Part shown: positions 16,528 to 33,185 of the stretch, piece after piece
How the letters are laid out: each line of letters begins with the position of its first letter
Numbering within the stretch: position 1 is the stretch's first letter
From: an uncultured Actinomycetes bacterium
Lineage (GTDB): Bacteria; Actinomycetota; Thermoleophilia; UBA2241
Length of the DNA: 64,000 bases
Assembly: GCA_963767005.1 (NCBI GenBank)
Contig: CAVYCN010000008.1
Coordinates: 96,001-160,000, forward strand
Reading direction: 5' to 3'
Position numbers and translations under genes: made by a program
The notes under the pieces: model-generated
Database searches by the model: none
Seen by the model: the letters and a program-made list of their open reading frames with translations, nothing else
What the model was told of the DNA's origin: nothing

Positions 16528-17316
16528 TCAGGCCGGCGCCGCCGTTGGGCCGGTGTCGTCGTCGGCGGCGTGCCGCCGCTCGACCGCGCGGCGGCGCTCC
16601 ATCAGGCGCGCGATCACGACCGACAGCTCGTAGAGGATCTCGAGCGGGATGAACATGGCGATGAACGAGAAGGCATCCTGGCTGGGCGTCGCGACCATCG
16701 CGATGATGGCGTTGATCACGATGGCGTAGCGCCAGTGCTTGCGCAGGAACGAGGTCTTGACCACGCCGATGCGCACCGCCGCGATGATTGCGACGGGCAT
16801 CTCGAACACCGCCCCGAACGCGACCAGGAACCAGGCGATGAACGAGAAGTAGTCGTTCGCTCGCAGCTGCGTGTTGAAGAACTGGCCGTTGAAGCCGAGC
16901 AGCCAGCCCAGGCCCTTCGGCAGCACGATCAGGTAGCCGAACACGACGCCGAACATGAACAGGCCGAAGCAGACGGCCGCGACGAGGATGAGCACGCGCC
17001 GGCTCGCCGGGGTGAAGGCGGGTCCGATGAAGGCCCAGAACTCGTAGATCACGATCGGCGACGCCAGGATCACGCCGACGTACGCCCACACCTTGAGGCT
17101 GACCATGAAGGGCTCGGCCGGGCTGAACGTGGTGATCTTGTGGGGCACGTTCCCGGGGAGCCCCGCGAGCGGGTGGCGCATGAGGGCGAAGACCTGGTCG
17201 TTCAGCACGGCGGCGATGACGATGCCGACGCCGAGCGCGATGGCCGCGATGATGATGCGGCGGCGCAGCTCGTCGAGGTGATCGACGAGGGTGACGCGTT
17301 CGTCGAACCCGACCAT
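16528..17316 (-). CDS. tatC: twin-arginine translocase subunit TatC
   Basis: TLVDHLDELRRRI, SPAEPF, YEFWAFIGPAF, FEMPV, ATPSQD and LYELSV motifs. Confidence 0.93.
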   Translation of the reverse strand: MVGFDERVTLVDHLDELRRRIIIAAIALGVGIVIAAVLNDQVFALMRHPLAGLPGNVPHKITTFSPAEPFMVSLKVWAYVGVILASPIVIYEFWAFIGPAFTPASRRVLILVAAVCFGLFMFGVVFGYLIVLPKGLGWLLGFNGQFFNTQLRANDYFSFIAWFLVAFGAVFEMPVAIIAAVRIGVVKTSFLRKHWRYAIVINAIIAMVATPSQDAFSFIAMFIPLEILYELSVVIARLMERRRAVERRHAADDDTGPTAAPA

Positions 17317-17324
17317 GCCGAGCG

Positions 17325-17963
17325 TCAGTCGGGGGTCGTCGAGGCCGCTGCCGGGGCGCTGCTGCGGCGCAGCTTGCCGAACGTCTCGACGCCCGCCGGG
17401 TCGCCCTGGGCGGCGTCGGGGCCGGCCGCCAGGGCGGCGGACGGCGCGGGAGCGTCGGGTGCGCTCGGCGCCTGCGGGGCGCTGGGCGCGGCGATTGCGG
17501 CGTTGTCGACCCCGCTCTCGTCGGCGACCGCGGCGGGCCCGGTCGCCGCGGCGTCGACCGGCACCTCGGGTGCGGCGGGAGCGGCCTCGTCGGTCGGGAC
17601 CTGGGGTGTGTCCGGAGCGTCCTCGTCGGCCATGCCGGCCGGCTCGGTGAGGGCGGCGCCGGTCACGGCACCGGTCACGGCGGCCGTCACCGCGGCGGGC
17701 GCGATGCTGTCGGGCGCCGTGGGGGTGGCGGCGGGCGCGGCGGGCTGGGTGTCGCCGGTGAGGCTGAAGCTCGATTTGAGGTCGTTGACGGAGCCGGCGA
17801 TGTCGTCGACGCCGATCTGCGAGCGGATCTCGCTCGTGGCCGTCCTGAACTCGCGGATCGCCTGACCAAGCTGCTTGCCCATCTGAGGCAGGCGCTTGGG
17901 GCCGAACACCACGAGGGCGATGACCAGCACCATGAGGAGCTCGGGGAGACCGATGTTGGGCAT
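17325..17963 (-). CDS. twin-arginine translocase TatA/TatB-family subunit with long acidic Ala/Pro tail
   Basis: MPNIGLPELLMVLVIALVVFGPKRLPQMGKQLGQAIREFR; GAGGTGG RBS; directly upstream of tatC. Confidence 0.88.
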   Translation of the reverse strand: MPNIGLPELLMVLVIALVVFGPKRLPQMGKQLGQAIREFRTATSEIRSQIGVDDIAGSVNDLKSSFSLTGDTQPAAPAATPTAPDSIAPAAVTAAVTGAVTGAALTEPAGMADEDAPDTPQVPTDEAAPAAPEVPVDAAATGPAAVADESGVDNAAIAAPSAPQAPSAPDAPAPSAALAAGPDAAQGDPAGVETFGKLRRSSAPAAASTTPD

Positions 17964-18282: not shown

Positions 18283-18651
18283 ATGACGAGCGCATTCCTC
18301 ACGAGCTGGGCTTACGTCGCCGTGTTCATCGTGGCCGGCGCGGTCATGGTCGTCGGCATCCTGCTGATGTCGCGGCTCGTGTACCCGATCCACCCGTCGC
18401 CCGAGAAGTACTCCACGTACGAGTGCGGCATCGAGCCGGTCGGCGACTCGTGGCACCCCTTCGCCGTGCGCTACTACATCTTCGCCCTGCTGTTCCTGGT
18501 CTTCGACGTCGAGGCCATCTTCCTCTTCCCGTGGACGCTCTCGTTCCGGCGCTTCGGCACGACGGGCTTCGTCGAGGTCCTGCTGTTCATCGGCGTGCTC
18601 GCGGTCGGCCTGCTCTACGCCTGGCGCAAGGGAGCGCTCGAATGGGCGTGA
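18283..18651 (+). CDS. nuoA: NADH-quinone oxidoreductase subunit A
   Basis: [40 protein letters not shown]. Confidence 0.95.
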
Positions 18652-19352
18652 TCGACGACGCCGGCCTGCGCGGCTTCGTCGACCGGTTCCAGTACCCGAA
18701 CATCAGCCAGTTCGAGCGGCCCAACGTCATCACGACGACCGTCGACTTCATCTTCAGCTGGGCGCGCTCGCACTCGGTGTTCCCGTTCACCTACGGCCTC
18801 GCCTGCTGCGCGATCGAGATGCTCTCCTCGGGCTTCGCCCGCTTCGACGTCGCGCGGTACGGCATGGAGGTCTTCCGGCCCACGCCGCGCCAGTGCGACC
18901 TGATGATCGTGGCCGGCACCGTCAACGAGAAGATGGCGCCGGTGCTCAAGCGCCTCTACGAGCAGATGTCCGAGCCCAAGTGGGTGATCGCCATGGGCGC
19001 CTGCGCGACCAGCGGCGGCCCGTTCTACGACGGCTACAACGTCGTGAACGGCGTCGACAAGGTCGTGCCGGTCGACGTCTACATCCCGGGCTGCCCGCCG
19101 CGCCCCGAGGCGCTCTTCCAGGGTCTGCTCGAGCTGCAGAAGAAGATCCAGGCGATGCGCATCGTGCCGCCGGTGACCGGCGACGTCGCGGCGAGCGAGC
19201 GCGACGAGCGCGCCGCCGCGCAGCAGGCGGTCGCCGACCTCGACGGCAGCGCCGCCGAGGTCGGCGCGGCGCAGGTCGCCGCGCCCGACACCGAGCCGGC
19301 CGTGGCGTCCGCCGCGACCGCCCGAGCCGCCCGCGACGGGGACGAGGGCTAA
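18642..19352 (+). CDS. nuoB: NADH-quinone oxidoreductase subunit B
   Basis: [44 protein letters not shown]; acidic Ala-rich tail. Confidence 0.95.
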
Positions 19353-19354
19353 CC

Positions 19355-19849
19355 GTGCTGCCCGCCATCGGTGCGGCCGGCCTGTCCGTCGCCGACGTCG
19401 CCGCGCGTCTGACCGAGGCCTTCGGCGACGACCTCGCCGGGCCGCGCGTCCAGGGCGCCGGCACGGTCGTCGCCGGCGTCGACCGCGCCCGCCTGCACGA
19501 CGTCGCCGAGCGGCTGCGCGCGCTCGAGGGTCTCGCCTACGAGTCGTGCAACTTCATCGCCGCGGTCGACCACGGCGACCGCTACGAGACGGTCTACCAC
19601 CTCTACTCCTACGCCTCGAACACGTACCTCGAGCTGCACGTCGACGTGCCGCGCGGCAAGCCGGCGGTGGCCACCGTGTCCGACGTCTGGCCGGCGGCCG
19701 ACTGGCACGAGCGCGAGGCCTGGGACATGATGGGCATCCGCTTCGAGGGTCACCCCGACCTGCGCCGCATCCTGCTGGCCGACGGCTGGGTCGGCCACCC
19801 GCTGCGCAAGGACTACGTCGACTCGGTCGAGAACCACCCCCATGTCTGA
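19355..19849 (+). CDS. nuoC: NADH-quinone oxidoreductase subunit C
   Basis: ADWHEREAWDMMGIRFEGHPDLRRILL..WVGHPLRKDY; start GTG 19355 approximate. Confidence 0.93.
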   Translation: MLPAIGAAGLSVADVAARLTEAFGDDLAGPRVQGAGTVVAGVDRARLHDVAERLRALEGLAYESCNFIAAVDHGDRYETVYHLYSYASNTYLELHVDVPRGKPAVATVSDVWPAADWHEREAWDMMGIRFEGHPDLRRILLADGWVGHPLRKDYVDSVENHPHV

Positions 19850-21056
19850 CCAGTTCGCGACAGCCGTGCCCGACGAGGCCATGGCCCTGGCGCTGCGCCG
19901 TATCGCCGAGTCCGAGGCCGAGGGCCAGGGCAGCGACATGGCCGGCCTGGGCTTCAACCAGGTGGTCGTCAACATGGGGCCGCAGCACCCCTCGACCCAC
20001 GGTGTGCTGCGCCTGGTCGTCACGCTCGACGGCGAGCTCGTCAAGGACGTCATCCCCGTCGTCGGCTACCTGCACCGCAGCTTCGAGAAGATCGCCGAGA
20101 AGCGCACGTACTACCAGTACATCCCCTACCCGGCTCGCACCGAGTACCTGGCCGGCATCAACTGCGAGTGGGCCTACCTGCTCGCCGTCGAGCAGCTCGC
20201 CGGCATCACGCCCACGCGCCGCGCCGAGTTCGTCCGCGTGATCATGGCCGAGCTCAACCGCATCGCGAGCCACCAGGTGGGCGTCGGCACGTTCGTGGCC
20301 GACCTCGCGCCGCTCGGCACGGCGATGGTCTTCTACGCCTTCCGTCACCGCGAGCAGATCCTCGACCTGCTCGAGGCCGCGACCGGAGCGCGCATGATGT
20401 TCAACTACCTGCGCTTCGGCGGCGTGCGCGACGACCTGCCCGACGGCTGGATCGAGTCGTGCCGGGCGGCGATGCAGAAGGTGCCGGCCTGGTGCGACGA
20501 GTACGAGCGGCTCGTCAACGACAATGCCGTCTTCCTGCAGCGCTGCGTCGGCAAGGGCGTGATCACCCAGGACGACGTGGCCGACTACGCCATCACCGGC
20601 CCCAACGCGCGCGCCTCGGGCGTGGCCCACGACCTGCGCCGCACCCGGCCCTACTCGGTCTACCCCGAGCTCGACTTCGCGGTCTGCACGGCCGAGCACG
20701 GTGACGTGTACGACCGCTACCTGGTGCGGATCGACGAGATCCGCGAGTCGGCGAAGATCGTGCTGCAGTGCCTCGACATGCTGCCGGCCGGTCCCGTACG
20801 TCTGGGCACCCTCAGGCCGCCCTACGTCATCGCCCCGCCGCCGGGCGCCTGCTACGTCGGGCAAGAGAACCCGCGCGGCGAGTTCGGCACCTACGTCGTG
20901 AGCGACGGCTCGCGCTACCCGTACCGGCTCAAGTACCGCGACCCCTGTTTTGTGAACCTGCAGATCTTTCCCAAGCTGCTGCGCGGCAACAAGATCGCCG
21001 ACGCCGTCGCCATCTCGGGGAGCATGGACATGGTGCTCGGAGGGATCGACCGCTGA
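19842..21056 (+). CDS. nuoD: NADH-quinone oxidoreductase subunit D
   Basis: NMGPQHPSTHGVLRL, GYLHRSFEK, ENPRGEFG, DMVLGGIDR; no Ni-binding CxxC pairs. Confidence 0.95.
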   Translation: MSDQFATAVPDEAMALALRRIAESEAEGQGSDMAGLGFNQVVVNMGPQHPSTHGVLRLVVTLDGELVKDVIPVVGYLHRSFEKIAEKRTYYQYIPYPARTEYLAGINCEWAYLLAVEQLAGITPTRRAEFVRVIMAELNRIASHQVGVGTFVADLAPLGTAMVFYAFRHREQILDLLEAATGARMMFNYLRFGGVRDDLPDGWIESCRAAMQKVPAWCDEYERLVNDNAVFLQRCVGKGVITQDDVADYAITGPNARASGVAHDLRRTRPYSVYPELDFAVCTAEHGDVYDRYLVRIDEIRESAKIVLQCLDMLPAGPVRLGTLRPPYVIAPPPGACYVGQENPRGEFGTYVVSDGSRYPYRLKYRDPCFVNLQIFPKLLRGNKIADAVAISGSMDMVLGGIDR

Positions 21057-22171
21057 TGGACATCTTCCTCGCCATCGTGCGGTGCGTCGTCGCGGTGCTG
21101 ATCGCCTACGGCATCGTGTTCGCCGCGGCGCTCGTCAACATCCTCTTCGAGCGCCGCGCGCTCGCCTTTCTGCAGGACCGCCTGGGCCCCAACCGGACCG
21201 GCTGGCAGGGCAGCCTGCAGAGCGTCGCCGACGCCTTCAAGATGATGGGCAAAGAGGACTTCGCCCCGAGCGCCGCCGACAAGGCGATGTTCACGCTGGC
21301 GCCGATCATGGTCATGATCGGCGCCGTCGCGATCCAGGTCGTCGTGCCCTACACGAGCGGCTGGACCGACCAGAACCTGAACGTCGGCCTCATCTACATC
21401 GTCGCCATCACGAGCTTCACCGTGCTTGCGATCCTGCTCGGCGGCTGGGCCTCCCACAACAAGTACTCGCTGGTCGGCGCGCTGCGCTCGGGCGCCCAGA
21501 TGATCTCGTACGAGGTGCCGATGATCCTCGCGCTGCTCGTCGTCGCCATGGGCGCGGGCTCGCTCAGCCTGAACACGGTGGTCGCGGTCCAGCGCCACTA
21601 CGAGTGGTTCGCGTTCACCATGCCGTTCACGTTCCTGCTCTTCTTCATCGCCTCGATCGCCGAGCTCAACCGCGGCCCCTTCGACCTGCCCGAGTCCGAG
21701 TCCGAGCTCGTCGCCGGCTACGGCACCGAGTACTCCGGCATGCGCTTCGGCATGTTCTTCCTGAACGAGTATGCCGGCATGACGATCATGTCGATGGTCA
21801 CGGTCACGCTGTTCCTGGGCGGCTGGCAGGGGCCGCTGGCCGGCGCGCTCGTCGTGCACGGGGTGGCGATCGTGCCGATCCTCTGGTTCCTGATCAAGGT
21901 GTACGCGCTCGTGTTCGCGCTCATCTGGATCCGCCTGTCGGTGCCCCGCCTGCAGGTCGACCAGCTCATGGGCTTCGCCTGGAAGGTCCTCATCCCACTC
22001 GGCCTGGTCAACGTGCTCGCCACGGCGGCCGTCGCGCTCTGGGCGCCCCACTGGAAGCTCGCCATGGCGGCCTATAGCTGGATCGCCTTGATCGCCTTCG
22101 TCGGCCTGTTCGACGCGGTGCTGCGCTGGCGCCTGCGGCGCCAGCGTCGGCGCGTTACGGTGACCGCCTGA
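21056..22171 (+). CDS. nuoH: NADH-quinone oxidoreductase subunit H
   Basis: ERRALAFLQDRLGPNR, AQMISYEVP, AELNRGPFDLPESESELVAGYGTEYSG. Confidence 0.95.
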   Translation: MDIFLAIVRCVVAVLIAYGIVFAAALVNILFERRALAFLQDRLGPNRTGWQGSLQSVADAFKMMGKEDFAPSAADKAMFTLAPIMVMIGAVAIQVVVPYTSGWTDQNLNVGLIYIVAITSFTVLAILLGGWASHNKYSLVGALRSGAQMISYEVPMILALLVVAMGAGSLSLNTVVAVQRHYEWFAFTMPFTFLLFFIASIAELNRGPFDLPESESELVAGYGTEYSGMRFGMFFLNEYAGMTIMSMVTVTLFLGGWQGPLAGALVVHGVAIVPILWFLIKVYALVFALIWIRLSVPRLQVDQLMGFAWKVLIPLGLVNVLATAAVALWAPHWKLAMAAYSWIALIAFVGLFDAVLRWRLRRQRRRVTVTA

Positions 22172-22932
22172 TGCTCGGCATCCTCAAGGCCATGGGCACC
22201 ACGCTGGCGCACCTGCCGCAGCGCAAGATCACGGTGCAGTACCCCGAGGAGCGCGAGCAGCTGCCGGAGCGCAGCCGTGGCCTGTTCCAGGTGGTGACCG
22301 ACCCCGCCACCGGCGAGCCTGCCTGCCGCGCCTGCACGCTGTGCGAGACCAACTGCCCGGTGCAGGTCATCCGCGTGAACTACACCTCGACCCACGCCCT
22401 GCCGGCGGTCGACGACGCGCGCATCACGCGCGTGCGGGCAGCGGCGCAGCCCGTGCCCGACACGACGCTGATCGCGCCGGTGATCGACCAGTACCGCAAG
22501 ACCGGCCAGGGCCTCATGGGCGTCCTGCAGCACACCCAGGAGATCTACGGCTACCTGCCGCGCCTCGCCCTGCAGGAGATCGCGGTCGAGACCGGCGTCT
22601 CGCTGTCGCAGCTCTACGGCGTGGCGAGCTTCTACGACCAGTTCCGCCTGAACCCCGTGGGCCGCTTCGTCGTGACCGTCTGTCACGGCACCGCCTGCCA
22701 CGTCGCCGGCGCGCCGCTCATCACCGAGGCCTTCTCCGAGGAACTCGGCCTCGAGGTCGGCAAGACCAGCAAGGACCGCCTCTTCACCCTGCAGACCGTG
22801 AGCTGCGTCGGCGCCTGCGCCCTGGCCCCGGTAGTGCGCATCGGCGACGATGAGACTCACGGCCGCATGACGCCCGACAAGGCGCGCAGCCTGGTCGGCG
22901 AGCTGCGCCACCGCGCCGAGGTCGACCGATGA
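22171..22932 (+). CDS. fusion: N-terminal half of NuoI (one CxxCxxCxxxCP) + NuoE/HydC-like [2Fe-2S] subunit
   Basis: Residues 1-~70: ITVQYPEEREQLPERSRG...CRACTLCETNCP (NuoI N-half). Then QEIYGYLP, GVASFYDQF, CHGTACH and CVGACALAP (NuoE). Confidence 0.88.
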   Translation: MLGILKAMGTTLAHLPQRKITVQYPEEREQLPERSRGLFQVVTDPATGEPACRACTLCETNCPVQVIRVNYTSTHALPAVDDARITRVRAAAQPVPDTTLIAPVIDQYRKTGQGLMGVLQHTQEIYGYLPRLALQEIAVETGVSLSQLYGVASFYDQFRLNPVGRFVVTVCHGTACHVAGAPLITEAFSEELGLEVGKTSKDRLFTLQTVSCVGACALAPVVRIGDDETHGRMTPDKARSLVGELRHRAEVDR

Positions 22933-24845
22933 GCGTGGCGATCGATCGCGGCAGCCTGATCGAAGCCGCCCTCGCCCGCGCGCTGCACCCCGAGAGCATC
23001 ATCGCCCACGAGGGCGCCCGCGAGGTGCGCATCTGCGCCGGCACGGCCTGCCACGCGTCCGGCCGTCCGGCCGTCACCGCCGCCTTCCGCGAGCAGCTCG
23101 CCGACAAGGGCCTGGCCGACACGGTGCGGGTCGTCGAGACCGGCTGCCACGGCTTCTGCGAGCAGGGCCCGATCGTGCTGCTGCAGCCCCAGGGCCTGTT
23201 CTACTCGCGGGTGCGGGCGACCGATGTGGCCGGCATCATCACGGCCAGCATCGAGGCCGACGGCGTCTACGAGAAGCGCCTCTACAAGCACCCGGCGACC
23301 GGCGAGCCGGTGCCCCACGAGGAGGACATCCCGTTCTACGCCGGGCAGCGCCGTCTCGTGCTCAACTTGAACGGCCGCATCGACCCCTACTCGATCGACG
23401 ACTACCTCGCCCAGGACGGCTATCGCGCGCTGGCCGACGTGCTCGTGCGCGACGACCCGGTCGGCGTGATCGACGACATCGAGAACTCGGGGTTGCGCGG
23501 CCGCGGCGGCGCCGGCTTTCCGGCCGGCCGCAAGTGGCGCTCCTGCCGGGCCAACCCCGGCGACTGCAAGTACGTCATCTGCAACGGTGACGAGGGCGAC
23601 CCCGGCGCCTTCATGGACCGCTCGGTGCTCGAGGGCAACCCGCACTCGGTGGTCGAGGGCATGATCATCGCCGCCTATGCGATCGGCTCGGGCGTGGCGC
23701 CGGTGCACGGCTTCGTGTACGTGCGCGCCGAGTATCCGTTCGCCGTGCAGCGCCTCGACGCCGCCCTCGCCCAGGCGCGCGAGCGCGGCCTGCTCGGCGC
23801 GAACATCCTCGACTCGGGCTTCGACTTCGACATCCGCATCAACCAGGGCGCCGGCGCCTTCGTCTGCGGCGAGTCCACGGCGCTCACCGCGAGCATCGAG
23901 GGCCAGCGCGGCATGCCGCGCGGCAAGCACATCCGCACCGTCGCCCACGGCCTCTACGGCCAGCCGACCAACCTGAACAACGTCGAGACGTTCGCCAACG
24001 TGCCCTGGATCGTGTCGCACGGCGTCGACGCCTACCGCGCGATGGGCACCGAGACCTCGAAGGGCACCAAGATCTTCTCGCTCACCGGCAAGCTCCAGAA
24101 CGGCGGCCTCGTCGAGGTGCCGATGGGCGCCACGCTGCGCGAGGTCATCTTCGACGTGGGCGGCGGCATGCTGCCCGGCCGCGAGTTCAAGGCCGTGCAG
24201 CTCGGCGGCCCCTCGGGCGGCTGCCTGCCGGCCGACCTGCTCGACTCGCCCGTCGACTTCGAGAGCCTGCTGGCCGCCGGCTCGATGATGGGCTCGGGCG
24301 GCATGGTCGTGGTCGACGACTCGACCTGCATGGTCGACTTCGCCAAGTTCTTCCTGCAGTTCACCCAGGACGAGAGCTGCGGCAAGTGCGTGCCCTGCCG
24401 CCTGGGCACCAAGCGCATGCTCGAGACGCTCGTGCGCATCACCGAGGGCGAGGGCCGGCCCGACGACATCGAGCTCCTCGAGGAGCTGTCCGAGTACATC
24501 ATCGACGGCTCGCTGTGCGCCCTCGGCGGCAGCGCCCCCAACCCGGTGCTCAGCACGCTGCGCTACTTCCGCGACGAGTACGTCGCCCACGTCGAGGACC
24601 GGTGCTGCCCCGCCGGTCGCTGCAAGGCGCTCATCACCTACTACATCAGCGGCGACTGCACCGGCTGCGGGCTCTGCGCCAAGAAGTGCCCGACCCAGGC
24701 GATCACCGGCGAGCGCAAGCAGATGCACGTGATCGACACCGACCTCTGCATCAAGTGCGACACCTGCCGCCAGGTTTGCAACTTCAACGCCGTCCGGGTG
24801 CACTCGGGCTCGCAGGCCGGCGCGGCCGACGGAGGTGCGGCGTGA
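22929..24845 (+). CDS. nuoF: NuoF/HydB (BfuB)-type FMN/NADH-binding subunit with N-terminal [2Fe-2S] and C-terminal 2x[4Fe-4S] domains
   Basis: CAGTAC..TGCHGFCEQGP; SGLRGRGGAGFP; NGDEGDPGAFMDRS; GAGAFVCGE; GGPSGG; ESCGKCVPCR; HVEDRCCPAGRC; CTGCGLCAKKCP and CIKCDTCRQVC. Confidence 0.92.
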   Translation: MSVAIDRGSLIEAALARALHPESIIAHEGAREVRICAGTACHASGRPAVTAAFREQLADKGLADTVRVVETGCHGFCEQGPIVLLQPQGLFYSRVRATDVAGIITASIEADGVYEKRLYKHPATGEPVPHEEDIPFYAGQRRLVLNLNGRIDPYSIDDYLAQDGYRALADVLVRDDPVGVIDDIENSGLRGRGGAGFPAGRKWRSCRANPGDCKYVICNGDEGDPGAFMDRSVLEGNPHSVVEGMIIAAYAIGSGVAPVHGFVYVRAEYPFAVQRLDAALAQARERGLLGANILDSGFDFDIRINQGAGAFVCGESTALTASIEGQRGMPRGKHIRTVAHGLYGQPTNLNNVETFANVPWIVSHGVDAYRAMGTETSKGTKIFSLTGKLQNGGLVEVPMGATLREVIFDVGGGMLPGREFKAVQLGGPSGGCLPADLLDSPVDFESLLAAGSMMGSGGMVVVDDSTCMVDFAKFFLQFTQDESCGKCVPCRLGTKRMLETLVRITEGEGRPDDIELLEELSEYIIDGSLCALGGSAPNPVLSTLRYFRDEYVAHVEDRCCPAGRCKALITYYISGDCTGCGLCAKKCPTQAITGERKQMHVIDTDLCIKCDTCRQVCNFNAVRVHSGSQAGAADGGAA

Positions 24846-27286
24846 GCGCGCAGCCTCGCGACGCCGCTAAGGCGGCCGCGCCGGCCTCCCGCCCGGTGGC
24901 CGCCGTGCCGCAGATGACGCTCACGGTCGACGGGCACGAGGTGACGTGCGACCGCGGCGAGACCATCCTGCAGGCCGCCGAGCGGGCCGGGGTGCGCATC
25001 CCGACGCTGTGCTACGAGTCGCGTCTGCCGGCCTCGGCCGCCTGCCGCCTGTGCATGGTCGAGGTCGAGGGCTGGGGCAAGCCGGTGTCGAGCTGCTCGA
25101 CCTACGCCGCCGACGGCATCGTCGTGCACACCGACACCGAGAAGGTGCGCAAGATGCGGCGGCTCTATCTCGAGCTGCTGCTGTCCGACCACAGCTCGTT
25201 CTGCACGCCGCCCTGCGCCGACGCCTGCCCGACGGGGATCAAGATCCCGCAGTTCCTCGACGCCGTCGCACGGGGCGACTACGCCGCCGGCGTGCGCAAG
25301 CTGCGCGAGGACCTGCCGTTCCCGGCGATCCTCGGGCGCGTCTGCCCGCGGCCCTGCGAGGAGCCCTGCCGACGCCGTCTCGTCGACGAGCCCATCACGA
25401 TCTGCTCGCTGCACCGCTTCATGGCCGACCAGTGCCTCGACGACGAGCAGACCGGCGAGCTGCTCCTGCCCTACGAGCCGCGGCCCGACAGCGGCAAGCG
25501 TGTCGCCGTCGTTGGCGCCGGGCCGGCCGGCCTGGCCTGCGCGTTCTACGCCCGCCTCGACGGCCACCAGGTGACGATCTTCGAGGCCGAGTCGCGGCCC
25601 GGCGGCATGCTGCGCTACGGCATCCCCAGCTTCCGCCTGCCGCGCGAGGTGCTCGACAAGGAGCTCAACGTGCTCTGGCGCCTGGGCGTCGAGCTCGAGT
25701 GCGGCAAGCGCCTCGGCGCCGACCTGCGGCTCGACGACCTGACGGCGTCCTACGACGCCGTGTTCCTCGGCTTGGGCGCGCTGCACACCCCGGCGCTCGC
25801 CGTCGCCGGCGCCGAAGCGGCCGGCGTGACCGACGCGCTCGAGCTGCTGGCCGGCCTCGAGCGCGGCGACGACGTGACGGTCGGCGGCACGGTGGCCGTC
25901 GTCGGCGACGGCTTCGCCGCCGCCGAGGCCTGCCGCGTGGCGCGCCGCAAGGGCGCGACCGACGTCACCTGGCTCGCGCCGGGCGCGCGGGCCGACATGG
26001 CGACGCCGGCGGCCGAGATCGCCGCGGCACTCGACGAGGGCGTGCGGCTCGAAGAGGCCGTGGCGCCGATCGCCCTGCAGACCGGCGCCGGCGGCGCGCC
26101 GACCGGCATCGAGCTGCGTCGCGACGGCGGCGCCACGTTCGTGCTGGCCTGCGACCAGGTCGTGAACGCCGGCGCCCACGTGCCGCAACTCGACGGCACA
26201 AGCGAAGCGCAAGGCGTGGGCCGCACGGCGGCCGGCACCGTCCGCGTGAACGACGACACCCTGCAGACCGACGATCCGCGCATCTTCGCCGGCGGCGACG
26301 CCGTGCTGGGCGCGCGCACGGCGGTCGAGGCGGTCGCCCAGGGCAAGCGCGCCGCCTGGAGCATCGACGCGTTCCTGCGCGGCCACGACATGGCGGCCGT
26401 CGCGCGCGAGCTCGCCGAGGTGCGGGCGACGGCCTTCCCGGCCGCGCTCGCGGCGCGCAAGCGGCTCGACCCGGCCGTCGCCCGCCTGGCGGACGTCAAG
26501 CCGGTGTTCATCGACATGACGGTCGACGTCTCGCACCCGGCGCCGCGGCCGCGCATGCCCGAGCTGCCGGCGGCCGAGCGCGTGACCGGCTTCGCCGAGG
26601 TCGAGCTCGGCCTGACCGAGGAGCAGGCGCGCGAGGGCGCGGCCCTGTGCCTCGACTGCCACTGCCCGGCCAACGGCGAGTGCGAGCTGCAGAGCCTCGG
26701 CATCGAGTACGAAGTCTTCGAGAACCGCTTCCACGGGCAGGCGACCCACGACTACCCGGCCGACCTGCGCCACGACTTCATCATGCGCGAGCCCAACCGC
26801 TGCATCATGTGCCTGCGCTGCGTGCGCGTCTGCCGCATGGAGGTCGGGGCGAGCTGCTACGATGCCATGGGGCGCGGCTGGGACACGATCGTCTCGACGC
26901 CCGACAACCTGCCGCTGCAGACGGTCGGCTGCATCTCGTGCGGCAAGTGCGCCGAGACCTGCCCGACCGGCTCCATCGAGATCGACCGGCGCGTGCTGCG
27001 CAGCTACGATTTAGACGAGAGCCGCTGCATCTTCTGCGGCGAGTGCGTCGAGGTGTGTCCCTACGACGCGCTCGAGCAGACCGCCTTCTTCGAGCTCGCC
27101 GGCTACAGCCGCACGAAGCTCGCCGGCGAGTCGCTGTTCGTGCGCGTCCCGCAGAAGACCGACGGGCCGCGCCCCATCGTGGCCGACGTCGAGCCCCATG
27201 TGCGCGACGCGGTCGAGGGCAGAGGCTGGCAGTGGGCGCCGCTCAAGGGCGACGGCGACCTCGACGAGATCGAGCGTGACCTCTGA
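24842..27286 (+). CDS. fusion: NuoG-like Fe-S domains with inserted GltD/NfnB-like FAD oxidoreductase + C-terminal half of NuoI
   Basis: IPTLC..ACRLCMVE..SC ([2Fe-2S]); DH..CTPPCADACP, GRVCPRPCEEPCRR, GAGPAG, GGMLRYGIP, FAGGD (GltD); CLDCHC..CELQ; CIMCLRCVRVC; CISCGKCAETCP; then YDLDESRCIFCGECVEVCPYDALEQTAFFELAGYSR (NuoI C-half). Confidence 0.88.
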   Translation: MSAQPRDAAKAAAPASRPVAAVPQMTLTVDGHEVTCDRGETILQAAERAGVRIPTLCYESRLPASAACRLCMVEVEGWGKPVSSCSTYAADGIVVHTDTEKVRKMRRLYLELLLSDHSSFCTPPCADACPTGIKIPQFLDAVARGDYAAGVRKLREDLPFPAILGRVCPRPCEEPCRRRLVDEPITICSLHRFMADQCLDDEQTGELLLPYEPRPDSGKRVAVVGAGPAGLACAFYARLDGHQVTIFEAESRPGGMLRYGIPSFRLPREVLDKELNVLWRLGVELECGKRLGADLRLDDLTASYDAVFLGLGALHTPALAVAGAEAAGVTDALELLAGLERGDDVTVGGTVAVVGDGFAAAEACRVARRKGATDVTWLAPGARADMATPAAEIAAALDEGVRLEEAVAPIALQTGAGGAPTGIELRRDGGATFVLACDQVVNAGAHVPQLDGTSEAQGVGRTAAGTVRVNDDTLQTDDPRIFAGGDAVLGARTAVEAVAQGKRAAWSIDAFLRGHDMAAVARELAEVRATAFPAALAARKRLDPAVARLADVKPVFIDMTVDVSHPAPRPRMPELPAAERVTGFAEVELGLTEEQAREGAALCLDCHCPANGECELQSLGIEYEVFENRFHGQATHDYPADLRHDFIMREPNRCIMCLRCVRVCRMEVGASCYDAMGRGWDTIVSTPDNLPLQTVGCISCGKCAETCPTGSIEIDRRVLRSYDLDESRCIFCGECVEVCPYDALEQTAFFELAGYSRTKLAGESLFVRVPQKTDGPRPIVADVEPHVRDAVEGRGWQWAPLKGDGDLDEIERDL

Positions 27287-27789
27287 TGCCGCAGGGCGAC
27301 TTCCATCCCATCCTGTTCGTGATCGTCGCCGTCTGGGTGCTGGGCTGCGGCATCGCCGTGGTCGCCCTGCGCAACATCGTGCACTCGGCGATGGCGATGG
27401 TGGCCTGCTTCCTGGGCGTGGCGGCGGCCTACGTGCTGCTCGACGCCGGCCTGCTCGCCGTCATCCAGATCCTGATCTACGTGGGCGCCATCTCGGTCGT
27501 CGTGCTGTTCGCCATCATGCTGACCGAGCAGCAGCGCACCGGTCGCGGCTTCTACTTCAACCGCCAGTCGATCGTCGCCCTGCCGCTTGCCGTCGCGACC
27601 TTCGTCGTGCTCACCGTCGTGCTCGTGACCTCGAAGATGCCGCTCAGCGGCAGCCACGCGCACAATGTCTCGCTGACCGGCATCGCAAACGGCCTCTTCA
27701 GCGCCTACGTCTTTCCGTTCGAGCTCGTCTCGATCGTCCTGCTGTCGGCCATGGTCGGCGCCATCGTGCTGGCCCGCAAGGAGGACTAG
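27286..27789 (+). CDS. nuoJ: NADH-quinone oxidoreductase subunit J
   Basis: NIVHSA, QILIYVGAISVVVLFAIML, PFELVSIVLLSAMVGAIVL. Confidence 0.93.
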   Translation: MPQGDFHPILFVIVAVWVLGCGIAVVALRNIVHSAMAMVACFLGVAAAYVLLDAGLLAVIQILIYVGAISVVVLFAIMLTEQQRTGRGFYFNRQSIVALPLAVATFVVLTVVLVTSKMPLSGSHAHNVSLTGIANGLFSAYVFPFELVSIVLLSAMVGAIVLARKED

Positions 27790-27854: not shown

Positions 27855-28163
27855 GTGAGCCCCGTCGACTGGTATCTGACCCTCGCCTCCGGCCTCTTCT
27901 GCATCGGCGCCTACGGCGTGCTCGCGCGGCGCAACGTCGTGCTCATCGTGATGAGCCTCGAGCTCATGCTGAACGCCGTGAACCTCGCCCTCGCCGCCTT
28001 CGCCGACTTCATGCCGGGGGCCGCCGGTCGCGGCACCTTCTTCGTGCTGTTCATCATCACCCTGGCGGCCGCCGAAGTGACGGTCGGCCTGGCGATCATC
28101 GTCGCCAACTACCGCAACCGCCGGTCGGTGCAGGCCGACGAGTTCAGCGAGATGAAGGGCTAG
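27855..28163 (+). CDS. nuoK: NADH-quinone oxidoreductase subunit K
   Basis: RRNVVLIVMSLELMLNAVNL, AAAEVTVGLAII. Confidence 0.95.
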   Translation: MSPVDWYLTLASGLFCIGAYGVLARRNVVLIVMSLELMLNAVNLALAAFADFMPGAAGRGTFFVLFIITLAAAEVTVGLAIIVANYRNRRSVQADEFSEMKG

Positions 28164-28173: not shown

Positions 28174-30069
28174 GTGCACGTCGCCATCGCCCTGATCCCG
28201 GCCCTGCCGCTCGCCGGCTTCGTGATCACGCTGCTGCTCGGCCGCAACGCGCTGGCCCGGCGGCCCGAGGTCGCGTCGCTCGCCGCCGTCACCGGCTCGT
28301 GGGTGCTCAGCATGGTCGTCGTGGCGCACGTCTTCGGCCACCACACGCAGACGATCGACGTGCACCTGTTCAGCTGGGTCTCGGCCGGCTCGTTTCAGGT
28401 GCAGTGGGGCTACTACGTCGATGCGCTCGCCGCCGTCATGCTCATCGTGGTCAGCACGATCGGCATGCTCGTGCACTACTACTCGATCGGCTACATGCGC
28501 GGCGACGGTGGCTACTACCGATTCTTCGCCTACCTCAACCTCTTCATGTTCGCCATGTTCACCCTCGTGCTGGCCGACAACTACCTGCTCATGTTCCTGG
28601 GCTGGGAGGGCGTGGGCCTCTGCTCGTACCTGCTGATCTCGTTCTGGTTCCACAAGAAGAGCGCCTCGCAGGCCGGCAAGAAGGCCTTCCTCGTCAACCG
28701 CGTGGGCGACTGGGGCTTCACCCTGGGCGTGTTCCTCATGTTCGTGACGTTCGGCACCCTGCAGTTCTCGCAGGTCTTCGCCCACGCGGCCCACGTGAGC
28801 CCGGGTCTCGTCACCTGGATCAGCCTGCTGCTCTTCGTCGGCGCGGTCGGCAAGAGCGCCCAGTTCCCGCTGCACGTCTGGCTGCCCGACGCGATGGAGG
28901 GCCCGACCCCGGTCAGCGCCCTGATCCACGCCGCCACGATGGTGAACGCCGGCGTCTACATGATCGCCCGCAGCTACCCGCTCGTGAGCCACTCGCACAC
29001 CGCCATGCTCGTCGTCATGGGGGTGGGCTGCTTCACGGCGATCTACGCCGCCTGTATCGCGCTCACCCAGAACGACATCAAGAAGGTGATCGCCTACTCC
29101 ACGATCTCGTCGCTCGGCTTCATGTTCATGGCGCTCGGCGCGGGCGCCTGGGTGGCAGGCATCTTCTACCTGTTCGCCCACGGCTTCTTCAAGGGCCTGC
29201 TCTTCCTGGGCTCGGGCTCGGTGATCCACGCCATGTCGGGCGAGCAGGACATGCGTCACATGGGCGGCCTGCGCAAGAAGCTGCCGCTCACCTTCTGGAC
29301 GATGATGGTCGGCGCCCTCGCCAACGTCGGTCTGTTCCCGTTCGCCGGCTTCTGGGCCAAGGACGAGATCCTGGGCGGCGCCTTCTCGGGCCACTACTAC
29401 GTGGTCTGGCTGGTGGGTCTGGTCACCGCCTTCGTGACGGCGGTGTTCATGTTCCGCCTCATGTTCCTGACCTTCTGGGGCGAGAACCGCGCCGACGCCG
29501 AGGTGCAGCATCACATCCACGAGTCGTCGGCCGTGATGACCGTGCCGCTCGTCATCCTTGCCGTGCCGGCCGCGGTGCTCGGCCTGGTGATCGGCCTGCC
29601 GCCCGGCGGCGGCTGGCTGCACACCTTCCTGCACCCGGTCTTCTTCAGAGTCGAGAGCGAGCACTTCGCCTGGGCCGGCACCGGTGGCGCCCTCATGCTC
29701 CTGTCGCTCGTCGTGGTCGTGCTCGGCATCGGCACGTCGTGGCAGGCCTACCTGCGGCGCCCCGAGCTGCCCGCGCGAGTCGCCGCTCGCGTGCCCTGGG
29801 CCTACCAGGCGTCGCTGCACAAGTTCTATATGGACGAGATCTACGACGCCGGTGTGGTGCGTCCGGTCATGGGCTTCGCCTCGTGGCTGTGGACGTTCGT
29901 CGACGTCAAGGTGGTCGACGGCGCCGTCAACGGCATCGCCGCCGTCTGGGCCGCCTTCGGGCGCGCCCTGCGGCCGCTGCAGACCGGCCGCGCCCAGAGC
30001 TACGCGTTCGGCGTCTTCGGCGGCCTGTTCGTGCTCGTCATCATCGTCCGCTACGTCTGGAGGGCCTGA
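28174..30069 (+). CDS. nuoL: NADH-quinone oxidoreductase subunit L
   Basis: GWEGVGLCSYLLI, KAFLVNRVGD, GKSAQFPLHVWLPDAMEGPTPVSALIHAATMV, DIKKVIAYST. Confidence 0.96.
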   Translation: MHVAIALIPALPLAGFVITLLLGRNALARRPEVASLAAVTGSWVLSMVVVAHVFGHHTQTIDVHLFSWVSAGSFQVQWGYYVDALAAVMLIVVSTIGMLVHYYSIGYMRGDGGYYRFFAYLNLFMFAMFTLVLADNYLLMFLGWEGVGLCSYLLISFWFHKKSASQAGKKAFLVNRVGDWGFTLGVFLMFVTFGTLQFSQVFAHAAHVSPGLVTWISLLLFVGAVGKSAQFPLHVWLPDAMEGPTPVSALIHAATMVNAGVYMIARSYPLVSHSHTAMLVVMGVGCFTAIYAACIALTQNDIKKVIAYSTISSLGFMFMALGAGAWVAGIFYLFAHGFFKGLLFLGSGSVIHAMSGEQDMRHMGGLRKKLPLTFWTMMVGALANVGLFPFAGFWAKDEILGGAFSGHYYVVWLVGLVTAFVTAVFMFRLMFLTFWGENRADAEVQHHIHESSAVMTVPLVILAVPAAVLGLVIGLPPGGGWLHTFLHPVFFRVESEHFAWAGTGGALMLLSLVVVVLGIGTSWQAYLRRPELPARVAARVPWAYQASLHKFYMDEIYDAGVVRPVMGFASWLWTFVDVKVVDGAVNGIAAVWAAFGRALRPLQTGRAQSYAFGVFGGLFVLVIIVRYVWRA

Positions 30070-30071: not shown

Positions 30072-31661
30072 GTGGGCTGGCATCAGCAGGCGGGCTTTCC
30101 CATCCTCTCGGTCATCACGTACCTGCCGCTCGTCGGCGTCGTGATCATCGCCCTGTTCGGCAGGGGCCGGCCGACCTTCTACAAGGTCGTCAGCCTGGTC
30201 GTCACGCTGGCCGCCTTCGCGCTGTCGATCGTGCTGCTGCTCCGCCTCCACGCGAACCGGCCCGGCATGCAGTTCGTCGAGAACGTCGTCTGGATCAAGC
30301 GCTTCAACATCCACTACGGCTTCGGCATCGACGGCATCTCGGCGCTGTTCATCTTCCTGACCACGCTGCTCGGCTTCATCGTGATCATCGCGAGCTGGCA
30401 CTACGTCAAGGACCGCGAGCGCGGCTTCTTCGCGACGCTGCTGCTCCTCCAGGTCGGCATGACCGGCGTGTTCTGCGCGACCGACATCTTCCTGTTCTAC
30501 GTGTTCTGGGAGGCCATGCTGATCCCGATGTTCTTCATCATCGGGATCTGGGGCGGTCCCCGGAAGATCTACGCCGCCGTCAAGTTCTTCCTGTTCACGC
30601 TGGTCGGCAGCGTGCTCATGCTGGTCGCCATCATCGCCCTGGTCTGGTACGCGCGCGGCAACTCGCCGGTCGGGCTGACGTTCGACATCCAGCAGCTCTC
30701 GCACCTGATCCTGCCCTACGACCTGCAGCTCTGGGCCTTCGCCGCCTTCTTCGTCGCCTTCGCCATCAAGGTGCCGATGTGGCCGCTCCACACCTGGCTG
30801 CCCGACGCCCACGTCGAGGCCCCGACGGCGGGCTCCGTGATCCTCGCCGGCGTCCTGCTGAAGATGGGCGGCTACGGCATGCTGCGCTTCTGCCTGCCGA
30901 TCTTCCCCGACGCCGCGGTCGCCTTCATCCCGCTCGTCGTCGCCCTGTCGATCGTGGCCATCATCTACGGCGCCCTGGTGTCGATGCAGCAGAAGGACTT
31001 GAAGAAGCTCGTCGCCTACTCGAGCGTCAGCCACATGGGCTTCGTCACGCTCGGCATCTTCGTGTCGGTGGCCGTGCTCGGCAACGCCCAGGGCATGGTG
31101 GGCGCGATCCTCGTCATGTTCAGCCACGGCCTGCTCACGGGCGCCCTGTTCCTGCTGGTCGGCTTCCTCTACGAGCGCACGCACACGCGTGAGATCGCCG
31201 CGATGGCCCGTCTGGCCACGCCGCTGCCGGTGCTGGCCGGCTTCTTCCTGTTCTTCACGCTCGGCTCGCTCGGCCTGCCCGGCCTGTCGGGCTTCGTGGG
31301 CGAGTTCCTGAGCCTGCTCGGCCTGTTCCACTACTCGCACTGGATGGCGGCCGTCGCCGCCCTCGGCGTGATCCTGGCGGCCTGCTACCTGCTCTGGATG
31401 TTCCAGCGCGTCATGTTCAACGACCGCGGCGACGAGGCGGTCAAGCCGGCCTTCGCCCTGTCCGACTTCGGTGCGCGCGAGATCGCGTCGCTGCTGCCGC
31501 TCGTCGTGCTCGCCGTGTGGGTGGGCGTCTACCCCAACACCTTCATCAATCTCGTCCACCTGCCGGTCCAGCAGATCGTCGATCGCGTCGTGCCGTCCCT
31601 CGCCCAGGCCCACGGCGGGACACTCGCCGACCTCGGTCGTTTCGCACGGGGGCTGCTCTAG
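30072..31661 (+). CDS. nuoM: NADH-quinone oxidoreductase subunit M
   Basis: FYVFWEAMLIPM, AIKVPMWPLHTWLPDAHVEAPT, KKLVAYSSVSHMG, LPGLSGFVGEF. Confidence 0.96.
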   Translation: MGWHQQAGFPILSVITYLPLVGVVIIALFGRGRPTFYKVVSLVVTLAAFALSIVLLLRLHANRPGMQFVENVVWIKRFNIHYGFGIDGISALFIFLTTLLGFIVIIASWHYVKDRERGFFATLLLLQVGMTGVFCATDIFLFYVFWEAMLIPMFFIIGIWGGPRKIYAAVKFFLFTLVGSVLMLVAIIALVWYARGNSPVGLTFDIQQLSHLILPYDLQLWAFAAFFVAFAIKVPMWPLHTWLPDAHVEAPTAGSVILAGVLLKMGGYGMLRFCLPIFPDAAVAFIPLVVALSIVAIIYGALVSMQQKDLKKLVAYSSVSHMGFVTLGIFVSVAVLGNAQGMVGAILVMFSHGLLTGALFLLVGFLYERTHTREIAAMARLATPLPVLAGFFLFFTLGSLGLPGLSGFVGEFLSLLGLFHYSHWMAAVAALGVILAACYLLWMFQRVMFNDRGDEAVKPAFALSDFGAREIASLLPLVVLAVWVGVYPNTFINLVHLPVQQIVDRVVPSLAQAHGGTLADLGRFARGLL

Positions 31662-33185
31662 ATGAACAACTCGGTCTTCATCGTGCTGCCCACCGTCGTC
31701 ATCCTCGCGACCGCGGTGGTCGTGCTGCTCGCCGACCTCGTCTTCGAGCGGCGCCCCAAGGTCCTCGGCTGGCTGTCCGCCGGCGGCCTCGTCGTGGCCG
31801 CCTCGGTGGCGATCGGCCAGTGGGCGACCTGGTCGGGTGGCGACGCGCTCTGGCGCGTCTTCACCGGCGGCCTCGGGTTCGGCGCCCGGCAGGGCAGATA
31901 CGGCTTCAACGGCATGGTCCGGCTCGACCAGTACGGGCTCTTCTTCACGGTGCTGTTCTGCGCGATCGGCGTGCTCACCGTCCTGCTGTCCGACGGCTAC
32001 CTTGCCCAGCATCGCATCAAGGCGGGCGAGTTCTACCTGCTGCTGCTGCTCGCCTTGAGCGGCATGGTCTGCATGGCGATCTCGACCGACCTCATCGCCC
32101 TGCTCGTGTCGTTCGAGCTCATGTCGTTGCCGAGCTACGTGCTGGCCGGCGTGCTGCGCCGCGACCGCAAGTCGGGCGAGGCGGCCATCAAGTACTTCGT
32201 GAACGGCGCCTTCGCGTCGGCCGTCCTCGCCTTCGGCCTCGCCCTCGTCTACGGCGCGACCGGGGCCACGGGCTACGGCTCCATCCAGCGCTCACTCGCC
32301 GCCGGCGACCCGCGCAACGCGATGCTGCTCGTCGCCCTCGTGCTGGTGGCGACCGGCTTCGGCTTCAAGATCGCAGCGGTGCCGTTCCACGGCTGGGCGC
32401 CCGACGTCTACGAAGGCGCCCCGACGCCGGTCACCGCCTTCATGTCGGTCGGCATCAAGGCCGGCGCCTTCGCCGGCTTCCTGCGTATCGTCGCTCTGGC
32501 GCTCATCCCGGCCTCGCAGGGCTGGTCCGACGTGCTGATCATCCTGGCCGTGCTGACCATGGTCGTCGGCAACGTGCTCGCCCTGCCGCAGCGCAACCTC
32601 AAGCGGCTGCTCGCCTACTCGAGCATCGCGCACGCCGGCTACCTGCTCCTCGGCCTGGTCGCCCTGGGCCGCAGCCACGACACGACCGGCGCCGGCGCGG
32701 TCCTGTTCTACCTGGCCGCCTACACGTTCATGAACCTCGGCGCGTTCGGCGTGCTCGTGCTCATCCGCAACCGCCGGGCCTTTGCCTACACGCTCGACGA
32801 GCTCGCCGGCATGGGTCGCAGCATGCCGCTCACCGCCTTCGCCATGACGCTCTTCATGCTGTCGCTGACCGGCATCCCGCCGCTCGCCGGCTTCTGGGGC
32901 AAGTTCTACCTGTTCACGGCCGTGATCGACGCGCACCTCACCTGGCTCGCGGTCGTCGCCGTCGTGATGAGCGCGGTGTCGGCGTTCTACTACCTGCGGA
33001 TCGTCTGGTACCTGTACTTCCGCGAGGCCGAGCCGGCCGCCGAGGAGCCCGAGCTGCTGGCCGCCGACGGCGGCATCGCCAGCGCGACGGCCGTCGCGGT
33101 GCTCGGCGTGCTCGCGGTGGGCGTGTACCCGTCGCCGGTCATCGCCGCGGCGCAGGGAGCCGTGCGCCTCATCTTCAAGGCCTGA
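31662..33185 (+). CDS. nuoN: NADH-quinone oxidoreductase subunit N
   Basis: EAAIKYF, FKIAAVPFHGWAPDVYEGAPTP, KRLLAYSSIAHAGY, GIPPLAGFWGK. Confidence 0.96.
   Translation: MNNSVFIVLPTVVILATAVVVLLADLVFERRPKVLGWLSAGGLVVAASVAIGQWATWSGGDALWRVFTGGLGFGARQGRYGFNGMVRLDQYGLFFTVLFCAIGVLTVLLSDGYLAQHRIKAGEFYLLLLLALSGMVCMAISTDLIALLVSFELMSLPSYVLAGVLRRDRKSGEAAIKYFVNGAFASAVLAFGLALVYGATGATGYGSIQRSLAAGDPRNAMLLVALVLVATGFGFKIAAVPFHGWAPDVYEGAPTPVTAFMSVGIKAGAFAGFLRIVALALIPASQGWSDVLIILAVLTMVVGNVLALPQRNLKRLLAYSSIAHAGYLLLGLVALGRSHDTTGAGAVLFYLAAYTFMNLGAFGVLVLIRNRRAFAYTLDELAGMGRSMPLTAFAMTLFMLSLTGIPPLAGFWGKFYLFTAVIDAHLTWLAVVAVVMSAVSAFYYLRIVWYLYFREAEPAAEEPELLAADGGIASATAVAVLGVLAVGVYPSPVIAAAQGAVRLIFKA

Follow-up and report, generated by a model that had tools for sequence, protein, structure and literature searches.

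A complex I operon of a Thermoleophilia bacterium carries a Bfu cassette inside a split nuoI gene and may encode a menaquinone-reducing proton pump fed by NADH and ferredoxin

The DNA described here, 64,000 nucleotides of contig CAVYCN010000008.1 from an uncultured Actinomycetes bacterium of the class Thermoleophilia (GTDB lineage UBA2241; assembly GCA_963767005.1, positions 96,001 to 160,000 of the forward strand; hereafter the window), carries on its forward strand a 13-gene complex I operon in the order nuoA-B-C-D-H, three cassette genes, nuoJ-K-L-M-N. The cassette belongs to the Bfu family of bifurcating flavoenzymes and consists of a gene fusing the N-terminal half of NuoI to BfuC (NuoE) at 22171..22932, bfuB at 22929..24845, encoding a BfuB/HydB-type flavin mononucleotide (FMN) subunit of 638 amino acids (aa), and bfuA of the NfnA/StnC type at 24842..27286. 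Stop and start codons overlap at all four cassette junctions, from the nuoH stop with the fusion gene start to the bfuA stop with the nuoJ start. No intact nuoI occurs in the operon, and the C-terminal half of NuoI lies in BfuA (aa 716-761; 26987..27124).

A first-pass annotation had assigned the 638-aa protein to the HydB/BfuB type and not to the respiratory type, naming an extra N-terminal thioredoxin-like [2Fe-2S] domain, a C-terminal 2x[4Fe-4S] domain and a Phe instead of Tyr, and this is borne out by Pfam, by the cluster ligands, by published marker residues and by PDB ranking. Pfam places the thioredoxin-like [2Fe-2S] domain at aa 28-105, followed by the Nuo51 FMN domain, SLBB, the NADH_4Fe-4S region and the C-terminal 2x[4Fe-4S] domain. 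By aligned position, the ligands are C36/C41/C73/C77 for B5, C484/C487/C490/C530 for B1, C467, T505, H554, C560 and C565 for the B2/Zn site, and the eight Cys of C577-C617 for B3/B4, and the FMN/NADH site by which a Bfu core is recognized is present. Losey et al. (PMC7311640; statements on this and the other papers cited here refer to the portions of text covered) distinguish the bifurcating type by Ala/Glu and Met near the NADH site, Phe near FMN and a five-residue SLBB motif, and BfuB is of that type throughout (A227, M229, F311 and the motif at 426-430). The NuoF of the other complex I in the same genome served as a control: it has 462 aa, lacks B5 and B3/B4, carries Tyr at the F311 position and has no SLBB motif.

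Scored against TIGR01959, the NCBIfam model of respiratory NuoF, BfuB reaches 448 against a cut-off of 559, and no respiratory NuoF cut-off is reached. Among 102 distinct matched PDB sequences the top nine are all of the HydB/NfnB/StnB type (470-630 aa, 627-784 bits), the best being 7t2r_B (784), 8a6t_B (727), 9bov_B (719), 7q4v_B (715) and 8oh5_B (703), while the remaining chains, headed by formate dehydrogenase beta and respiratory Nqo1/NuoF, score at most 390 bits. The phylogeny called for by the first-pass annotation was covered by this PDB ranking and by BfuB trees within the class, which hold Thermoleophilia/Actinomycetota rows only. At the sequence level the bifurcating-type identity of BfuB is confirmed far beyond chance and agrees with every published sequence criterion, and we infer that BfuB itself would bifurcate. 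The fifth B2 ligand position (505), given as Cys/Thr in print, varies in L027-L035 and other loci (I, V, R, K, M, S, A), and such free variation is in line with a four-ligand zinc site.

The first cassette gene encodes NuoI residues 1-73, a linker and then BfuC/NuoE at about aa 98-250; its NuoI part (22171..22389), aligned by TIGR01971 over positions 2-66, comprises the amphipathic start and the first cysteine quartet (Cys 52/55/58/62). On our own NuoI profile, which draws on nine unsplit NuoI proteins from the class and on a further mis-started row (L166) that added one residue, the N-half covers positions 1-73 at 71.5 bits and the C-half in BfuA (Cys 729/732/735/739) positions 78-123 at 48 bits, so that the halves abut at 73 and 78 and the cut falls in the loop between the two quartets. 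The BfuC part, whose gene adjoins bfuB as in Bfu enzymes, has its C1 [2Fe-2S] ligands at Cys 171/176/212/216, and its closest PDB matches are StnA/NfnC/HydC. The N-half quartet is invariant in 15/15 aligned copies from nuo operons and from the pyruvate:ferredoxin oxidoreductase-type (por) operons described below, the C-half quartet in 65/65 aligned proteins, and the quartets of both halves persist in the por paralogs despite the loss of the NuoI N-terminal helix. In the 2x[4Fe-4S] ferredoxin fold, each cluster takes three Cys from one quartet and one from the other, and therefore both N6 clusters would draw on two polypeptides. When the two halves were predicted as a complex, the score was 0.49 against 0.00 for the best control, with contact agreement of at least 76% and partner predicted local distance difference test scores (pLDDT) of at least 54; the mark applied is reached by 116/157 solved complexes and 2/215 mismatches, and passes at or below 0.60 comprise 18 solved complexes together with both passing mismatches. 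The prediction thus lends weak support to pairing of the halves, and it may have passed because they resemble solved NuoI. A frameshift or misassembly as the origin of the split is ruled out by conservation of the fusion in relatives. No description of such split-NuoI wiring was found in the literature searched, whose coverage left out most subscription journals.

BfuA, identified by Pfam/NCBIfam and with 9bov_A, 8oh5_C and 9n5u_A as its best PDB matches, is ordered as a [2Fe-2S] domain, a GltD-like flavin adenine dinucleotide (FAD) domain with two [4Fe-4S] sites, an A3/A2/A4 region and the NuoI C-half, which replaces the A5/FdhF-like domain into which StnC continues. The alignment to 9bov_A/8oh5_C stops near residue 737 of the 814, and where 9bov_A has its A5 motif BfuA runs on as the NuoI half, without that motif. 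The A3 region is present (His117/Cys121 and the cysteines of 603-614), and the quartets at 654-664 and 697-707 correspond in the alignment to A2 and A4 of StnC/NfnA. Within the NADP-binding domain (aa 316-450; 25787..26191), delimited by alignments to relatives, we found the changes G356D, Y379A, R380P and R381G and deletion of a conserved loop near aa 429. In an alignment of 65 BfuA proteins, collected by searching with a protein of family f6, G, Y, R and R stand at these four positions in 63, 63, 64 and 64; we take the arginines at 380 and 381 to be contacts of the 2'-phosphate. Identity to the copy of locus L022 is 40% in this domain, against 81-87% for four intact copies, and six of the seven other segments stand at 71-91%, the linker at 55% (60-74% among intact copies). 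To judge from these alignments, the NADP-binding domain of the window BfuA is decayed and no longer an intact NADPH-binding Rossmann domain. The fourth ligand of A7 is His191, a His in 65/65 aligned BfuA and in all split cassettes examined, where StnC/NfnA have a Lys that the characterized NfnABC/StnC require (PMC10482914, PMC12018979); by alignment, this His is a shared derived mark of the split cassettes. The first-pass annotation had noted none of these features, neither the place of the module inside a split nuoI nor the NfnA/StnC-type BfuA with its second flavin and decayed NADP-binding domain.

The ten other genes encode the quinone module NuoB/C/D/H and the membrane arm NuoA/J/K/L/M/N, all with Pfam matches, and NCBIfam cut-offs are exceeded by B, D, H, K, L, M and N and not reached by A, C and J. 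Upstream of the cassette lie nuoA (18283..18651; PF00507), nuoB (18642..19352; TIGR01957), nuoC (19355..19849; PF00329; start codon inferred), nuoD (19842..21056; NF004739) and nuoH (21056..22171; NF004741), and downstream nuoJ (27286..27789; PF00499), nuoK (27855..28163; PF00420), nuoL (28174..30069; TIGR01974), nuoM (30072..31661; TIGR01972; start codon inferred) and nuoN (31662..33185; TIGR01770). NuoB has Cys 55, 56, 121 and 151, presumably the N2-type ligands, and NuoD retains the quinone-site His53 and Tyr102 in alignment to cyanobacterial NdhH (6hum_H). A sequence scan gave no promoter-like site and six terminator-like sites, against 3.3 +/- 1.5 in shuffles. Divergent from the operon are tatA/B-like and tatC genes, read from their translations (16531-17963, reverse strand).

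The arrangement is conserved among close relatives, and the named ones carry the label Thermoleophilia. Across the 36 other genomes of the window's family, 27 gave an unbroken full-length fusion match and a further 4 one that is broken or partial; in the remaining 5, which are 56-89% complete, no match was listed, and a full-length match was found in 0/24 genomes from seven other families of the class. Twenty of the 31 family loci were fetched: the cassette follows nuoH in 20/20, and nuoJ is reached in 19, the last locus ending at a contig end. Both inputs are kept in 14 of the 20, two of these being frameshifted assemblies read in pieces, and 4 are in the NADP-degenerate state of the window. 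Of the other two, L037 keeps its NADP site and has a degenerate BfuB, the loss reciprocal to that in the window, and L036 (L036:9355-13627; G011, same genus) has lost both inputs, a 2x[4Fe-4S] domain replacing the NADP domain of BfuA, so that by its sequence it possibly takes ferredoxin only. Family f6 has the split operon in 4/4 genomes, with BfuC a remnant and BfuB stripped. Stripped BfuB beside an intact NADP site marks the split-NuoI operons of L061-L064, L138 and L150-L152, which are candidate NADPH:quinone pumps; in L061 and L062 the NuoI N-half, BfuC remnant and BfuB form a single open reading frame (ORF).

In FastTree phylogenies of NuoB, D, H, L and M the split operons of the two families come out as sister groups, and a single insertion event is suggested. 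In family f4, 5/5 genomes carry an operon of 11 genes whose nuoI is intact; its role as the direct pre-insertion ancestor was only partly supported, for it is sister for NuoL and NuoM and not for NuoB, D and H (FastTree). Farther afield, a profile scan of genome contigs found at least 80 loci, all Actinomycetota among the matches listed, and the BfuA-NuoI(C) architecture also occurs in proteins labelled Chloroflexota and Limnocylindrales. The fusion profile was also run against 1.84 billion representatives, and among the 12 of 150 proteins examined there was, besides Thermoleophilia-like rows, one further NuoI(N)-NuoE fusion, P0127 (251 aa, 39% identical to the window fusion); the other long matches examined have unrelated N-terminal extensions. 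A complex-I-like cluster in L075 (G044 C26), with B-C-D-GltD-like-ferredoxin divergent from A-H-J-K-L-N, presents a GltD/NuoI association different from that of the window.

A second cassette in the window's genome (L167:8373-16463; G000 C16) has the order porG-porD-porA-[half-ferredoxin/BfuC]-BfuB-[BfuA/GltD/half-ferredoxin/PorB]. Its BfuA fusion of 1063 aa has a thiamine pyrophosphate-binding PorB domain attached, and by its sequence the cassette is fused into an enzyme of the pyruvate:ferredoxin oxidoreductase type. Both NuoI-like cysteine quartets are present, without the NuoI N-terminal helix. The same arrangement was read from ORFs in L041, L048, L051, L054 and L060, and other loci are labelled por by cassette similarity only. 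The NADP domains of the por copies are degenerate in 15/15 aligned. In BfuA trees the nuo and por copies separate, whereas in BfuB trees they do not: monophyly of the 13 nuo BfuB rows was rejected with an approximately unbiased test p (p-AU) of 0.0002 under LG+G4 on 26 rows, a subset of those fetched, for a grouping chosen after the first tree. The NADP-degenerate nuo group joins the por BfuB with support of 0.98 in FastTree, 99 by SH-aLRT and 90/99 in the careful tree; the two BfuB copies of genome G027, one nuo and one por, pair as sisters (94/100). The simplest reading of these trees would be that the paralogs have exchanged their BfuBC core.

The window's genome has a futalosine-type menaquinone cluster, a stand-alone ferredoxin of 56 aa on C7 and five 2-oxoacid:ferredoxin oxidoreductase alpha matches, two of them within the window, where two clusters at 1913-4973 and 10092-14185, within 17 kb upstream of the operon, are one four-gene and one IorAB-like with ACT and AMP-binding genes, and are likely ferredoxin sources. 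An FeFe-hydrogenase with maturases, two NiFe-hydrogenases, Hdr/Mvh genes, formate dehydrogenase-like and NrfD-type molybdoenzymes and cytochrome bd are also encoded, and neither RnfD nor acetyl-CoA synthase has a match in this genome, which is rated 100% complete. The canonical complex I clusters with bc and aa3 genes; its operon (L166:187-16705; G000 C8, upstream of the window) has a fused NuoCD and holds cytochrome c/b, a UbiA-family gene and a heme-copper oxidase between nuoA and nuoB. Two further Bfu loci were noted: an intact BfuCB pair (L168:9182-17774; G000 C3), Type 4-like and with no adjoining BfuA match, directly downstream of formate-tetrahydrofolate ligase, a cyclodeaminase-like gene and folD and itself followed by ORFs without assignment, and BfuC-BfuB-molybdopterin-family BfuA followed by a separate GltD-like gene (L169:5389-12536; G000 C6), possibly a two-piece Nfn/Stn-type complex.

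Energetics were computed with the potentials in Table 1 of Schut 2022 (PMC9304861). At 150 mV, NADH alone supports 2.75 H+/2e- (3.3 with the standard potential), NADH together with ferredoxin 4.2 and NADPH 4.1; therefore the two inputs retained in the family match four-proton pumping to menaquinone, and NADH alone does not. A pump-loaded quinone arm (150 mV, 4 H+/2e-) would stand at about -374 mV beside an NADH/ferredoxin mean of about -390 mV, which implies a near-equilibrium, reversible machine.

Based on these findings, we propose, at about an even chance, that the 13-gene complex I with its cassette in nuoI confurcates NADH and reduced ferredoxin to menaquinone with proton pumping. Insertion of the cassette inside nuoI makes it likely that the pump is fed by NADH and ferredoxin together, and the fusion of module to pump is strong genetic evidence for one enzyme. 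First, NADH would reduce the FMN of BfuB, and ferredoxin electrons would enter through B4/B3 and C1, as in the solved Bfu enzymes. Mid-potential electrons would leave by B1, A1 and A2 and then by the A4 side branch into the NuoI half, where the two halves would rebuild N6a/N6b with Cys of two polypeptides and staple the cassette to the quinone module. Finally, N2 would reduce menaquinone, and NuoL/M/N/H would translocate some 4 H+ for every 2 e-; in the window's lineage the FAD branch of BfuA would be a relic that has no NADPH input. The split-NuoI complex probably serves at low oxygen, as the counterpart of the canonical complex I whose genes lie with those of an aa3-type oxidase on the same contig.

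Several observations weigh against this proposal. In the literature covered we found no assayed Nuo-Bfu, the predicted complex I with a Bfu module, so bifurcation in a membrane complex is an extrapolation. The operon is kept though the FMN/NADH motifs are lost in 2/20 family loci and in 4/4 f6 loci, and intact BfuB is, to judge by these sequences, dispensable in close relatives. The His at A7 indicates that the FAD branch differs even in intact copies. Asp at 356 is also found in por paralogs and in a separate nuo lineage, and its recurrence could reflect altered specificity instead of a dead site. The window BfuA also retains its FAD-binding motifs and, in the second Rossmann loop, the spacing of the glycines. 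An AlphaFold model of BfuA as a monomer is confident over most of residues 20-630 and has pLDDT below 50 over 632-788, which covers the A4-to-NuoI region.

The same machine may run mainly in reverse, proton-motive force and menaquinol driving bifurcation to NAD+ and oxidized ferredoxin, and would thereby provide a cell that lacks Rnf with low-potential electrons for making hydrogen and for carboxylations. The quinone-arm potential of -314 to -434 mV at 120-180 mV brackets the Bfu midpoint, no RnfD match was found in the complete-rated genome, ferredoxin users including oxoacid oxidoreductases and the FeFe-hydrogenase are present, and the separate canonical complex I could handle forward NADH oxidation; however, the menaquinol sinks (cytochrome bd, the NrfD-type molybdoenzyme, the bc/aa3 cluster) and the many ferredoxin-reducing enzymes suit forward flow, and we regard reverse operation as unlikely but worth keeping in view. 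It is rather unlikely that the BfuB core is not tightly bifurcating and that the complex is an oxidoreductase of NADH, or separately ferredoxin, with menaquinone and inherited extra clusters. Cluster number alone does not divide the two classes (Losey et al., PMC7311640), and relatives keep the operon with a degenerate BfuB, but the three diagnostic residue criteria and the full set of BfuBC ligands match the bifurcating type, the window BfuB groups in trees with the BfuB of soluble Bfu paralogs, and the yield from NADH alone is about 2.8-3.3 H+/2e- at 150 mV.

To the FAD domain of BfuA a nucleotide input may still belong, NADPH weakly or NADH after a specificity change, which would make the complex a four-substrate Nfn/Nuo hybrid like most relatives. 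The FAD motifs, the A6/A7 cysteines and a flavin-adjacent arginine are kept, Asp356 recurs in independent lineages and 14/20 family loci keep both inputs; against this, the NADP domain alone has fallen to 40% identity while six of seven other segments stand at 71-91%, and both 2'-phosphate arginine positions and the conserved loop are lost, so this reading seems to us quite unlikely. That the BfuA quartets 697-707 and 729-739 form a complete intramolecular NuoI-like domain, the BfuC-borne piece being only an anchor, is improbable: TIGR01971 and Pfam Fer4_7 align unbroken over BfuA 697-761, but quartet 697-707 adds 3 bits only (50.9 vs 48.0) where the BfuC-borne half gives 71.5, it aligns with 654-664 as A2/A4 of StnC/NfnA, and the N-half Cys are invariant even without the anchor helix. 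Last, NADH as a mid-potential donor whose electrons split downhill to quinone and uphill to ferredoxin is thermodynamically possible and known for the unrelated EtfABCX/FixABCX (PMC9304861), but is hardly credible here, since Bfu mechanisms in print have NAD(H) as the high-potential partner and the BfuA arm at mid-potential, and proton pumping would consume the energy needed for ferredoxin reduction.

The suggestion in the first-pass annotation of one ion-pumping machine for NADH, ferredoxin and quinone is accordingly supported as far as confurcation goes, and it coincides with a prediction already published as Nuo-Bfu; its other form, NADH bifurcated to quinone and ferredoxin, is not supported, because NAD(H) is the high-potential partner in Bfu wiring. 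New here are the decay of the NADP domain beside an intact core, the reciprocal loss in relatives, the fusion in the por operon and the non-monophyletic nuo BfuB. More tentatively, and with less than even confidence, we suggest that a transposable split-NuoI staple cassette joins the Bfu core to complex I or to pyruvate:ferredoxin oxidoreductase via inter-subunit [4Fe-4S] clusters on the A4 branch. Its ancestor would have taken four substrates (NADPH, NADH, ferredoxin and menaquinone) and its descendants, in anaerobic Thermoleophilia hosts, NADH and ferredoxin (window genome), NADPH only (f6, L037) or possibly ferredoxin only (L036), with BfuB swapped between paralogs. A complex I fed by FMN confurcation would, if true, explain how menaquinone-using cells pump four protons per electron pair and would let Rnf-less cells couple ferredoxin reversibly to the proton gradient. 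The split NuoI points to electrons reaching N2 by a new route. Close relatives with both inputs, with NADH/ferredoxin only and with NADPH only make a natural series on the cofactors that bifurcation needs, and the hydrophilic subunits lend themselves to expression without cultivation of the host.

Among known systems, respiratory complex I (NuoA-N) and 11-subunit, N-module-less forms such as cyanobacterial NDH-1 share with the window's operon the quinone module, the antiporter subunits and the order ABCDH-I-JKLMN with nothing between D and H, but their NuoI is intact and the canonical NuoF lacks B2-B5. Canonical NuoG docks through N5/A3. HydABC and NiFe-HydABCSL (7t2r, 8a6t, 7q4v, 7p5h) have a complete BfuBC core, as reflected in 7t2r_B at the top with 784 bits, and the HydABC FeFe enzymes share Thr at the fifth B2 position; however, the window operon has no H-cluster or NiFe subunit, and its third substrate would be quinone. 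In Bfu enzymes the mid-potential arm is BfuA, which admits the third substrate, B2 is usually zinc, the minimal site is B1-FMN-C1 and NAD(H) is the high-potential partner (PMC12018979, PMC11829005, PMC10482914), and A4/A5 is a dead-end branch in StnC/NfnA (PMC10482914, PMC11829005). NfnABC/StnABC (9bov, 8oh5, 9n5u) give the best matches for BfuA and BfuC and are among the best for BfuB, with the same [2Fe-2S]-GltD-A3/A2/A4 order and a GltD-like FAD domain inserted in BfuA. They differ in being soluble, in binding NADPH and in having an FdhF-like C-terminal domain and Lys at A7, in place of which the window has a membrane-complex operon, a decayed NADP domain, half a NuoI at the C-terminus and His.

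Schut 2022, who define the Bfu family from a survey that excluded metagenomic sequences, predict an uncharacterized 14-subunit Nuo-Bfu (51 sequences) that oxidizes NADH and ferredoxin together, reduces menaquinone and pumps four protons (PMC9304861). Neither "Thermoleophilia" nor "Actinobacteria" appears in the supplementary file searched, and "Actinobacteria" is absent from the main text as covered; Supplementary Table 1 and the figures of that study may bear on novelty. Their Por-Bfu, also predicted, resembles the paralogous cassette in the porG-porD-porA operon, but has separate subunits A-G in its published form, whereas the paralog carries both NuoI-like halves and, in its 1063-aa protein, PorB fused to BfuA. 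Nuo-Bfu (Type 3, BfuB clades 38/39) is likewise a full nuo operon in which BfuABC takes the place of NuoEFG; it comprises 14 subunits A-N fed through A3, its BfuA has A3 and A5, and its hosts are Deferribacteres, Proteobacteria, Planctomycetes and Nitrospirae, whereas the window's operon has 13 genes with a putative exit through A4, a BfuA with a GltD flavin domain and without the A5 motif, a NuoI in two fused halves and a Thermoleophilia host. Therefore, as far as its genes tell, the complex would work like the predicted Nuo-Bfu yet stands outside Nuo-Bfu as defined (13 genes, split NuoI, no A5, NfnA-type BfuA), and with His at A7 and a decayed NADP domain it would not be an Nfn-Bfu either.

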